DNA of 64,000 nucleotides from a virus. Its lineage: Duplodnaviria; Caudoviricetes. A program made the position numbers and the translations under genes. Shown here one piece after another: positions 61,673-64,000 of the stretch. The notes beneath the pieces were generated by a model. The model searched no databases. It was not told where the DNA came from and was given only the letters and a program-made list of their open reading frames with translations. Within the stretch, counting starts at the first letter, position 1. Each line of letters opens with the position of its first letter. The stretch lies in IMG/VR virus record IMGVR_UViG_3300025316_001101; one strand, 5' to 3'.

Positions 61673-61710
61673 AAAAACCCAATGTCGGCCTACGCCGACA
61701 TTGGGTTTTT
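61673..61710. terminator. bidirectional terminator, CAATGTCGGC family
   Basis: AAAAACCCAATGTCGGC-ctac-GCCGACATTGGGTTTTT between convergent genes. Confidence 0.85.
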
Positions 61711-61713
61711 TAG

Positions 61714-61821
61714 TAGCCGAAGCGGGACTTGCACCCGCACGGAGGTTACCCTCCACAAGATTTTAATTCATAGCGATGACTGTCGCTTGTCTTGTGTGTC
61801 TGCTAATTTCACCATTCGGCC
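61714..61821 (-). tRNA. tRNA-Leu(UAA) with 22-nt insertion in the anticodon loop; CCA not encoded
   Basis: Acceptor GGCCGAA/TTCGGCT+A, D-arm GGTGAAATTAGCAGACAC, anticodon stem CAAGA/TCTTG, loop C|TTAAAA, variable arm GGAGG-gtaa-CCTCC, T-arm GCGGG-TGCAAGT-CCCGC. Confidence 0.8.
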
Positions 61822-61822
61822 A

Positions 61823-62731
61823 TCAACTATTTAGCAACTTCCCCATTCTATCTATAGCGTTTTGTCTTCGCAAATGAGTTTTGGCATATTCTTGACCAGC
61901 TTTACCTATCATTTCTGCCTTTTCGGGATTCTCCACAGTCCAATTAACTGCTTGCAACATCCCTTCCGCCGTTTCGGCGGAAGGGATGTAGTGTACCCAA
62001 GGCTGAAAACTGCCATCGAACCAGAACCATTGTTCATATTTACGATCTGTAGCAATTATTGGCCTTCCTGTAGCTAGCAACAGCGGAAGCCGTCCACTAT
62101 GCCCATTTGCCGTCAAATCAATTAGAATTCTATATTTACAATGCTCTACGAGGGTAATATAATCGCTGGTGTGCTGGTAAAGGTTGGTTTTATCCCGTCG
62201 ATTCCATTCCATCATGCGAATATCCATAAGATCTGGATATTGAGCCGCCAAATCATTGGCTACCACTCTAGTTGGGTGGGTATTGGCACCGATCCAAAAT
62301 GCCCGTGAATTGACTGGCAACACCTCTCCTGCCCGCACCAATTCTTGAAAGGTTGTTTCATAGTCCAAAATTCCTACTTCGGGCCATGCATCAAACACAA
62401 AGTTGGGCATGCATTTATCTAATAGGTCTTTTGAAGTAATGGAAAACGAAAAGTCGGCAGCATGATTAAAAATGTCACCAGTATCAATGTGAATCATTTT
62501 TTCTGGTCTAGACTGGTCACTTTTTACACATTGATCCCAAGCTGCCTTGAGCAAACGTATTAAAGATGGGTGTCTAGTTTCATGACATCCATAGTCATTA
62601 AATTCTATTTTGGCATGATCATAGATCATGTCTAATTTTTCTTTACCGTAGTGTATACGGTTAGTCGTCTCTCGGGTCGGCAACGTCAATTTTGTAATCA
62701 GCTTCTTCATCAAATTTCTCGAACATTTCAT
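61823..62731 (-). CDS. GT90 (CAP10/POGLUT-like) glycosyltransferase
   Basis: RAFWIGA, EHCKYRILIDLTANGHSGRL..LL, F.PWVHYIP, A..IGKAGQEYA..HL; true start probably 62629 (MIYDHAK). Confidence 0.85.
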   Translation of the reverse strand: MKCSRNLMKKLITKLTLPTRETTNRIHYGKEKLDMIYDHAKIEFNDYGCHETRHPSLIRLLKAAWDQCVKSDQSRPEKMIHIDTGDIFNHAADFSFSITSKDLLDKCMPNFVFDAWPEVGILDYETTFQELVRAGEVLPVNSRAFWIGANTHPTRVVANDLAAQYPDLMDIRMMEWNRRDKTNLYQHTSDYITLVEHCKYRILIDLTANGHSGRLPLLLATGRPIIATDRKYEQWFWFDGSFQPWVHYIPSAETAEGMLQAVNWTVENPEKAEMIGKAGQEYAKTHLRRQNAIDRMGKLLNS

Positions 62732-64000
62732 CTACGGATGTATATCGGTTGGGTTCCACTTCTTTTTCATAGGATGTCTCTTTTTCAATGTCTTCCTTGG
62801 CTTCTTCCCAAGGAATCGTTTTCTCAACACCAGATTTTACATCTTCAACTCGTTGTTTCAAATCTTCGCACATTTCCTGTGCTTGTTCTGGTCCACCATA
62901 GAAAGATACTTCCCAATAAACAGTATCAAGAATTTCCAATAAAGTGAAATGCTGTTTGCCGATTGAAATTTTATTCTCAAAATGTTCGTACACGTCTAAA
63001 GTATCATCAGCTACAATTGAAAGATCAGCCAATTCACACATCGGGGTGAAACCAATGCCGTAGTGTTGGGTTTCTGGCGAAGGCACGGGATTACCATCTT
63101 TATCCTTGACGCCATACTTTACCCACTCTGCCTTTTCTTCTTCGCTCAATGGCCCGTAACCATGAATATCGCAACCCATACCGATGTCACGATCTTCTTT
63201 GTATACATGTACTTCACCACGTCTTGTCAATTTCAAAAAATACAAAGTGGTAGGAGTTGCAGGCAACTTAGCAGCAGCATGGAATTCATCAATGGAACGG
63301 CACCAAGAGTATTGAGCAATCAGGCATTTGAGTGCTTCATTTGAATCTACAAAATTGAACAAATCTCGCAGACTGAAATTTTCCGCAATCGAACAAGGGC
63401 TCATCAAATATTGTAGGGGATCAAGTTTCTCTCCTATTGCATTGAAAACCCCATCTTTTTTCAAATAAATTTCTTCGACATCATCAGGATGACGACCGAA
63501 TAGACTTTCCAACATTTCAAGAAGCGTGAAACAATAAGTACCTTGCAAGACTACTTTGCCATCATCGTATATCTTGAATTCCTCATCCAGTTTTAGAGGT
63601 ACATCCCAATCAGCGTGAGGGATGGTAAAACTATTGTTGGATACAATGGTCAACATTCCATCCAAGCCGACTAATCCTTCACGACTAATGATGAGTGGGC
63701 CATTGGTTGTAGATTCAGGCTCTTCCTTTTGACGTTGATAGTCAAACAGCGGCAGCATCGCCAGGGCCAACAGTTCGAGTTCTTCAGTATTTTTAATAAA
63801 ATCCATCAAATCTCTTAGGGTAAAACCCTCTTCGATTTGAATTCGATCTCGCAAAGAAGTGAAGACGTTATTGACCGGGCCGATGTCATAGAAAAAATCA
63901 TCGGCATCTTCCGGTGTGTTGGCTGTAAAAACGATTTCACCGCTTTCACGGTTTACAATGACACATTTGCCATCTTTTTTACGACGTTTGTGTTCACCGC
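62661..64000 (-). CDS. hypothetical protein with internally duplicated domain, partial (frame open to window end)
   Basis: F[TS]LRDL..F...E.L and FTLLE[MI]L each occur twice; no stop between 63854 and 64000 in frame. Confidence 0.65.
   Translation of the reverse strand, partial: GEHKRRKKDGKCVIVNRESGEIVFTANTPEDADDFFYDIGPVNNVFTSLRDRIQIEEGFTLRDLMDFIKNTEELELLALAMLPLFDYQRQKEEPESTTNGPLIISREGLVGLDGMLTIVSNNSFTIPHADWDVPLKLDEEFKIYDDGKVVLQGTYCFTLLEMLESLFGRHPDDVEEIYLKKDGVFNAIGEKLDPLQYLMSPCSIAENFSLRDLFNFVDSNEALKCLIAQYSWCRSIDEFHAAAKLPATPTTLYFLKLTRRGEVHVYKEDRDIGMGCDIHGYGPLSEEEKAEWVKYGVKDKDGNPVPSPETQHYGIGFTPMCELADLSIVADDTLDVYEHFENKISIGKQHFTLLEILDTVYWEVSFYGGPEQAQEMCEDLKQRVEDVKSGVEKTIPWEEAKEDIEKETSYEKEVEPNRYTSVDEMFEKFDEEADYKIDVADPRDD

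Follow-up and report, generated by a model that had tools for sequence, protein, structure and literature searches.

The tRNA-Leu(UAA) gene of a huge freshwater phage carries a 22-nt hairpin insert in its anticodon loop. This insert is probably an optional mini-intron that is cut at sites defined by its own hairpin and resealed by proteins. Inserts of the same design interrupt the anticodon loops of other tRNA genes, covary as an RNA helix, are present or absent exactly between related genomes and leave a canonical loop once removed. Excision at the level of the RNA, the enzymes that would carry it out and the chemistry of the ends they would leave are what we infer from these observations.

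The window, the whole 64,000-nt stretch of DNA that was analyzed, lies within a single 259-kb viral record with a GC content of 41%, a completeness of about 50% (CheckV) and a gp23-type capsid gene. The genome is that of a huge freshwater phage. Its nearest relatives in GenBank are the uncultured phages LR756511.1 (595 kb) and LR756508.1 (484 kb), with capsid proteins 33% and 27% identical, respectively. No close relative of the major capsid protein was found in the viral collection, and the DNA of the window locus had no match in the phage collection. About 50 tRNA genes were found in the record by ARAGORN, including two CUA suppressors. These amber suppressor tRNAs lie at C1 183724-183798 and C1 210663-210736 (the prefix C1 marks coordinates of the genome record); suppressor tRNAs with a CUA anticodon are found in phages that recode TAG. 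The features of the tRNA-Leu locus, in window coordinates, are as follows.

61714-61821, minus strand: whole tRNA-Leu(UAA) gene with insert (ARAGORN intron mode, fold, homologue alignment)
61789-61821, minus strand: 5' exon, tRNA positions 1-32, with acceptor GGCCGAA, 3-bp D stem, D loop AAAUUAGCAGA (containing A18 G19), anticodon stem CAAGA and C32
61767-61788, minus strand: 22-nt insert, candidate mini-intron, A-AGCGA-CAGUCA-UCGCU-AUGAA (ARAGORN, alignment, family alignments)
61772-61787, minus strand: insert hairpin, 16 nt, 5-bp stem AGCGA/UCGCU and 6-nt loop CAGUCA (fold, family covariation)
61767-61771, minus strand: insert tail AUGAA (minimum-energy fold, family pair counts)
61714-61766, minus strand: 3' exon with U33, anticodon UAA, A37 A38, stem UCUUG, variable arm GGAGG-GUAA-CCUCC, T arm GCGGG-UGCAAGU-CCCGC (G55), acceptor 3' strand and A73 (ARAGORN, alignment)
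61674-61709, no strand assigned: terminator-like hairpin, 16 bp, G+C-rich, A/U runs on both sides (sequence, hairpin alignment)
61823-62731, minus strand: glycosyltransferase family 90 (GT90) gene, stop codon 2 nt before tRNA-Leu

A first-pass annotation of the window had described a class II tRNA-Leu(UAA) at 61714-61821 with an insert that folds as AGCGA/TCGCT at 61767-61788, and both descriptions hold. The gene is complete and measures 108 nt to the discriminator A73 with the insert included. It has the 7-bp acceptor stem (GGCCGAA/UUCGGCU, with G1-U72), U8, the 3-bp D stem, the long variable arm and the A73 of a class II tRNA-Leu; a CCA tail is absent from the gene sequence. The anticodon loop comprises 29 nt versus the canonical 7 nt. 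The locus was matched neither by default ARAGORN nor by Rfam at the gathering score, and between 61600 and 61950 no Rfam model, the tRNA model RF00005 included, gave a match even at E<=10. In intron mode, ARAGORN called tRNA-Leu(taa) at C1 5204-5312 (window 61821-61713, minus strand) and assigned 22 nt, AAGCGACAGTCATCGCTATGAA, to an insert (window 61788-61767). When the insert was deleted in silico, default ARAGORN called an ordinary 87-nt tRNA-Leu(UAA), which agrees with the earlier claim that removal restores a normal tRNA. In ten shuffled genomes of matched composition (2.59 Mb), ARAGORN called neither uninterrupted nor intron-bearing tRNAs. At minimum energy the 108-nt RNA folds into a cloverleaf whose anticodon loop contains the AGCGA/UCGCU hairpin (z = -3.19), and equally good folds were found in 0 of 200 shuffles.

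The GT90 gene and tRNA-Leu are probably co-transcribed, since the GT90 stop codon lies only 2 nt before the tRNA; a weak promoter-like site is present at 61873-61845. The terminator-like hairpin is common to tRNA-Leu and a converging 242-aa ORF. In 138 long ORFs, 60% of the Leu codons are UUA or UUG, and the window gene is the sole tRNA-Leu that ARAGORN finds in the 259-kb record; the phage therefore needs this tRNA. No relative of the GT90 protein was found in the viral collection, and GT90 homologues at 45% identity had no adjoining tRNA.

The D and T loops of the gene had been flagged as atypical, with A for G18 and G for U55. Both substitutions were correctly observed: the elbow is formed by A18 G19 in the D loop (61799-61809) and G55 C56 in the T loop (61726-61732) rather than by G18-G19 and U55-C56. 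They are not oddities of this gene. All five tRNAs of the genome with G55 (a T loop beginning UGC) have AG, not GG, in the D loop, and none of the tRNAs with U55 combines a D-loop AG with a T-loop UGC. When orthologous tRNA-Arg(UCU) genes are compared, a relative has GG/UUC and the window genome AG/UGC, such that both sides switch together. A search with the D-loop/T-loop pattern recovered the sister strains and 22 other metagenomic contigs with the A18/G55 pair; by anticodon loop, 21 of the 22 are tRNA-Leu, and the pair is common in metagenomic tRNA-Leu genes. The sister strains were the only contigs among these to keep the insert-bearing Leu locus. The A18/G55 elbow is thus a covariation of the 18-55 tertiary pair and no sign of decay.

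The identical 22-nt insert is present in the sister-strain contigs L016, L031 and L032, whose flanking genes are about 95% identical to those of the window, and without any indel in Logan contigs of three further lake metagenomes. It is kept in independent assemblies of at least four studies. The lone change to tRNA-Leu in the sister strains is C32 to U (window 61789), by which a U-G pair is retained. The insert-bearing gene is known from near-identical strains only (1 change per 108 nt versus about 5% in the flanks), and its conservation by itself therefore says little. Three tRNA-Leu(UAA) homologues (L037, L043 and L029) are free of the insert and align to the window gene with a single clean 22-column gap after position 32. 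Their loops are (C/U)UUAAAA or UUUAAGC; in L037 the anticodon stem CAAGA/UCUUG is identical to that of the window gene and the loop is CUUAAAA. An insert-free counterpart of tRNA-Arg(UCU), with the loop CUUCUAA, is found in L052. The first-pass annotation had asked whether the insert position is conserved across related phages, and had named random decay of the locus in relatives as the outcome that would speak against an intron. The insert is identical in the sister strains and missing from the homologues, and decay is contradicted by the flawless tRNA body, the covarying elbow and the covarying family to which the insert belongs.

The Leu insert belongs to a family with a common design: one base, a 16-nt hairpin with the loop NAGNCA, and a tail of 4-5 nt, placed in the 5' half of the anticodon loop. 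The six members are given below as 5' loop bases, insert and 3' loop bases, separated by spaced slashes.

Leu(UAA), window: C / A-AGCGA-CAGUCA-UCGCU-AUGAA / UUAAAA
Arg(UCU), window genome, C1 226755: CUU / A-GGGGC-AAGUCA-GCCCC-AUAAU / CUAA
Met(CAU), window genome, C1 139350: CUC / U-UGGCU-CAGACA-AGCCC-UAGA / AUAA
Trp(CCA), sister contig L112: CU / A-CACCU-CAGUCA-AGGUG-AAAAA / CCAAA
Lys(UUU), sister contig L112: CUU / A-GGCGU-UAGGCA-ACGUC-GUAAG / UUAA
CAU tRNA, contig L124: CUC / U-UUCGC-CCACCA-GCGAG-UAGA / AUAA

Contig L124 comes from a more distant relative, in which the neighboring glycosyltransferase is 60% identical. Its loop, CCACCA, is the exception to the NAGNCA motif, whose A, G, C and A are found in each of the other five members. 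Removal of the insert leaves a canonical 7-nt loop in all of them (Leu, Arg, Met, Trp, Lys and the CAU tRNA of L124). In all six, the 5' exon ends in a pyrimidine and the 3' exon starts with N-Y-A-A. The anticodon itself is interrupted in Arg, Lys and Met. Hairpins with a NAGNCA loop are not enriched genome-wide (15 found versus 13.8 expected from shuffles), and those of full design occur in the window genome in anticodon loops only. An insert-free isoacceptor is present in the same genome for most insert-bearing tRNAs. ARAGORN also reports 'introns' of 33, 37 and 78 nt; these do not match the 1 + 16 + 4-5 design and were left out of the family.

The hairpin has been maintained by paired changes. 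In a comparison of five members, each of the five hairpin pairs shows changes in both strands, and 92% of hairpin cells are paired versus 62% in shuffles, a level reached in 0 of 500. When the test was extended to six members and three exon bases, the helix was found to continue below the hairpin beyond a 1-nt bulge. In five of six members there is a pair between the first insert base and tail nucleotide 2 (A-U in three, U-A in two, one mismatch), the last base of the 5' exon pairs with tail nucleotide 3 in all six (C-G in three, U-A in three), and the next exon base pairs with tail nucleotide 4 in four of six. Over all cells of the six members, 85% are paired versus 55% in shuffles (0/500 as high), and only 33-42% with the partners slid out of register. 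Exactly these family pairs recur when the Leu RNA is folded at minimum energy: the first insert base A (61788) is joined to tail nucleotide 2 (U) and C32 (61789) to tail nucleotide 3 (G), and tail nucleotide 1 (A) is bulged. A covariance model of the whole anticodon arm was dropped because MAFFT placed the variable linkers inconsistently. The 5' junction is thus placed within a helix. Counted from the partner of the first insert base, the 3' junction is 2 nt further on in the 21-nt members and 3 nt further on in the 22-nt members, so that the offset between junctions is not constant. Since the tail pairs with the last one to three bases of the 5' exon at the junction, it may act like a guide for that exon.

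The inserts are gained and lost as exact units between strains. Compared with its sister, the Met gene of the window genome has exactly 21 extra nucleotides between C34 and A35; the sister tRNA has an identical body, the loop CUCAUAA and no insert. The reverse is seen for Lys(UUU), where the sister has 22 extra nucleotides and the window genome none. The two Lys alleles also differ by a compensatory flip at the anticodon-stem pair 27-43 (A-U versus U-A), a sign that insert-bearing alleles still evolve as tRNAs. In a syntenic block ordered glycosyltransferase, CAU tRNA, HNH gene and Arg tRNA, the insert sits in the Arg tRNA in the window genome versus the CAU tRNA in L124. The boundaries of the Lys and Met inserts are fixed by the insert-free alleles, and that of Trp is unambiguous given its CCA anticodon; all three inserts begin exactly 1 nt ahead of the hairpin. 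The Leu sequence by itself permits 31/32 as well as 32/33, the same two positions that had been proposed at the outset, and the unambiguous boundaries of the family favor C32/U33. Two further differences between the strains were observed. The Trp tRNA pair is wholly different in the window genome and in the 94%-identical sister, a non-orthologous replacement (C1 142300-143000 versus L112:3600-3860), and about 500 nt between Trp and Arg(UCU) in the window genome are missing from the sister.

Two inserts of related size have been found in other arrangements. The tRNA-Val(UAC) gene at C1 209999-210094 (L022:50-145) has a 22-nt insert of mirrored design, in which a 6-nt 5' single strand pairs with the 3' exon, including the anticodon, and is followed by a 16-nt hairpin with a 6-bp stem and a 4-nt loop; the 3' junction coincides with the foot of the hairpin. 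In LR756511.1, a tRNA-Met(CAU) gene at 220337-220430 on the minus strand (L055:38-131) has a 21-nt insert at 32/33, A-CGGGUU-UAUC-AACCCG-CGAU, again with a 6-bp stem and a 4-nt loop. Both keep the 16-nt hairpin and the total length and do not match the pairing scheme of the family. Given the tRNA-Met insert in LR756511.1, whose capsid protein is only 33% identical, inserts of 21-22 nt are not confined to one lineage.

A complete IS200/IS605 unit (C1 879-2575) lies just past window position 64000, about 4 kb from tRNA-Leu. Its TnpA (Y1_Tnp, PF01797 at C1 885-1253, E 3e-35) is encoded in the ORF C1 879-1304, and the divergent 404-aa ORF at C1 1361-2575 is presumed to be TnpB from its position and size. 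Adjoining this unit, about 2.3 kb from tRNA-Leu, an RNA at C1 2728-2932 matches RNaseP-T (RF02357) with 37 bits and E 1e-5, under the gathering score of 60. A Pfam-confirmed TnpB fragment is found near the Val tRNA. The phage encodes an RNA ligase (PF09414, C1 185966-186679) as well as two kinases of the AAA_33 family whose matches to polynucleotide kinases are weak. The earlier suggestion to look for endonuclease and RtcB genes elsewhere in the genome was not rewarded: RtcB (PF01139), EndA-type proteins (PF01974), RNase III and 2H-family ligases were not found in the 259-kb record, which is about 50% complete. A search of the record for Rnl1 gave no match and is uninformative, since the control genomes likewise gave none.

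In the sister-strain contig L016, a gene for a 182-aa HNH endonuclease (phrog_2255, E 3e-25; L016:2631-3245) lies between the GT90 stop codon and tRNA-Leu, at a site that corresponds to window 61812-61822. It is flanked by a 10-nt direct repeat, GGCCGAATGG, that equals the first 10 nt of tRNA-Leu, and its reading frame continues through the tRNA 5' exon to stop at a TGA in the insert tail. In the window genome, phrog_2255 paralogues are separated by anything from a few to about 120 bases from tRNA genes for Arg, Ala, Gly, Pro, Asp/Val and Gln, at the following positions.

C1 226180-226737: HNH paralogue beside a tRNA gene
C1 206259-206726: HNH paralogue beside a tRNA gene
C1 195319-195705: HNH paralogue beside a tRNA gene
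C1 201837-202106: HNH paralogue beside a tRNA gene
C1 198911-199363: HNH paralogue beside a tRNA gene
C1 162724-162954: HNH paralogue beside a tRNA gene

The ends of tRNA genes look like landing sites for HNH homing endonucleases. The Arg tRNA of the window genome and the Leu tRNA of the sister each have an HNH paralogue directly upstream. No clear association between HNH genes and inserts emerged, as the paralogues also adjoin several insert-free tRNAs; only Arg has an insert among the HNH-neighbored tRNAs of the window genome.

In the mechanism proposed here, the hairpin would define two sites at which a nuclease, either a protein or a ribonucleoprotein, cuts the primary transcript. Pairing of the tail would put the 5' junction in the short helix under the hairpin, with the 3' junction 2-3 bases across. 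The anticodon loop would then be resealed by an RNA ligase, possibly the one that the phage encodes, to give a normal tRNA that reads UUA and UUG. The insert would be unable to splice itself, since the core of a group I or group II intron needs far more than 22 nt. Methionyl-, lysyl-, arginyl- and tryptophanyl-tRNA synthetases read the anticodon, and members with a split anticodon would therefore be functional only after excision. Splicing is supported by the restriction of the inserts to anticodon loops that are canonical after removal, and by selection on an RNA helix that spans the junction in alleles interchangeable with insert-free ones. Of the first-pass proposal of a protein-spliced phage intron, the phage origin and a short intron that does not self-splice are supported indirectly by the covarying, optional family in the anticodon loop. 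Two known nuclease activities were considered for the cuts. An RNase III-like 2-nt stagger fits only the two 21-nt members, and the others would leave 3 nt. Excision of a minihelix by RNase P and RNase Z requires a 5' cut at the base of the lower helix, and the unambiguous Met boundaries contradict this.

Could the inserts instead be tiny mobile DNA elements that an HUH/Y1 transposase moves as single-stranded hairpins, or that travel with the neighboring homing endonucleases, and that are never spliced and leave behind tRNAs that are dead but tolerated? Much about their movement would fit. Presence and absence are seamless between close strains, as in the 'peel and paste' of IS200/IS605, and an IS200/IS605 unit near tRNA-Leu and a TnpB fragment near tRNA-Val are at hand. 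The N-Y-A-A start of the 3' exon in all six members reads TTRN on the other strand, which resembles the TT-rich targets of the IS200/IS605 family, and TnpA likewise finds its sites through pairing of hairpin-foot bases with the cleavage site. An inactivating insertion could also be tolerated, since an intact twin exists for most of the affected tRNAs. However, TTRN targets are everywhere and no copy lies outside an anticodon loop; the stems are wholly different between copies, which are thus not recent copies of one another; each insert has a single hairpin where known elements have two; and the ends of the resident IS lack an insert-like hairpin. Moreover, the record contains no twin of Leu(UAA), and all strains observed carry the insert of this tRNA. 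As a full account this explanation is unlikely, yet DNA transposition may well describe how the inserts move.

It is equally unlikely that the unspliced RNA is the product, whether as a masked anticodon, a decoy for anticodon nucleases, a handle for a protein or a charged, non-decoding Leu tRNA. Leucyl-tRNA synthetase ignores the anticodon, and a loop whose A, G, C and A do not vary among five of the six members would be expected of a protein-binding hairpin. Anticodon loops are the usual target of host defense nucleases, as described in PMC10264068. A decoy, however, needs neither an exact canonical 7-nt remnant loop nor tail-exon pairing placed exactly at the junction. Heavy use of UUA and UUG with no second tRNA-Leu found speaks against it as well, and an insert that is optional in six tRNA species and interchangeable with insert-free alleles is intron-like. 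The masked anticodon and the decoy, both raised in the first-pass annotation, fit the family less well than an intron does: with the anticodon split in Arg, Lys and Met, charging should fail. A decaying pseudo-tRNA or an assembly artefact might be suspected of a gene that standard tRNA finders miss, and is very improbable for a flawless tRNA body on which independent assemblies from several studies agree, whose elbow change is a regular covariation and which belongs to a covarying family.

Protein-mediated excision is thus the preferred reading, and it would have consequences beyond one gene. A broader proposal, which can only be made tentatively and is somewhat less probable than not, is that the inserts represent a new class of introns: mobile 21-22-nt hairpin introns that carry their own guide for the 5' exon and use a dedicated cut-and-rejoin pathway of the phage or host. 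Bacteria and their viruses are not known to have tRNA introns other than self-splicing ones, nor is protein-dependent tRNA splicing known in bacterial cells. If the hairpins are removed from the RNA, a tRNA cut-and-rejoin pathway awaits discovery in infected bacteria. However the inserts move, they would be a new small mobile element that targets anticodon loops. Because default tRNA finders miss such genes, the tRNA sets of huge phages are undercounted. The comparison yields three rules: a fixed 16-nt hairpin, exon-tail pairing at the 5' junction and exact junctions from insert-free alleles. In a full-text literature search, 21-22-nt hairpin inserts in tRNAs were not found described, the introns of Lak megaphages being the sole related report; tRNA introns go unmentioned in a jumbo-phage review of 2026, and none of the published splicing routes found explains the inserts.

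Several known systems share parts of this design. Like the protein-spliced tRNA introns of archaea and eukaryotes, the inserts are short, hold no catalytic RNA and lie in or near the anticodon loop. Those introns form a bulge-helix-bulge, in which two 3-nt bulges on opposite strands are separated by a 4-bp helix with a splice site in each bulge, and are cut by EndA or TSEN and joined by RtcB or Trl1; in archaea they also occur at non-canonical positions. No bulge-helix-bulge could be drawn by hand on any member, in agreement with the first-pass inspection, because a helix encloses the 5' junction and only the 3' strand has unpaired stretches. The host here is a bacterium, and neither EndA nor RtcB was found in the 259-kb record, which covers about half of the phage. 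Cyanobacteria and plastids have a group I intron in this very tRNA species, tRNA-Leu(UAA), and its 5' splice site is set when the end of the exon pairs with a guide sequence in the intron (P1), as the tail may do here. That intron lies between U34 and A35, has a catalytic core (P3-P9) and measures roughly 200 nt or more; the insert is about tenfold shorter, has no core, matches no Rfam intron family and lies at C32/U33, and was rightly judged far too short from the start.

In the anticodon-loop repair of T4, a cut by PrrC is mended by Pnk and Rnl1, and the phage studied here likewise encodes an RNA ligase and kinase-like proteins; unlike the present proposal, T4 repairs one host-inflicted cut and removes nothing. 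IS200/IS605 and REP/RAYT elements share with the inserts small hairpins, seamless gain and loss, and pairing of the hairpin foot at their sites, and a TnpA is present. They have two hairpin ends, are much longer and occur genome-wide, whereas the inserts measure 21-22 nt, have one hairpin and occupy anticodon loops only. The closest parallel is offered by the 'enigmatic' tRNA introns of Lak megaphages, which are listed as 79-114 nt long, predicted at about 37/38 and equipped with tRNA-like T arms (Devoto et al., 2019; PMC6784885, Table S6). In that report's account, the Lak introns are, like the present inserts, anticodon-loop insertions in very large phages that match no Rfam family, do not vary from cohort to cohort, may be present or absent in related genomes and have no known mechanism (PMC6784885). 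Unlike the Lak introns as listed there, the Leu insert is 22 nt long, lies at 32/33 and consists of a single hairpin with a guide-like tail (PMC6784885).
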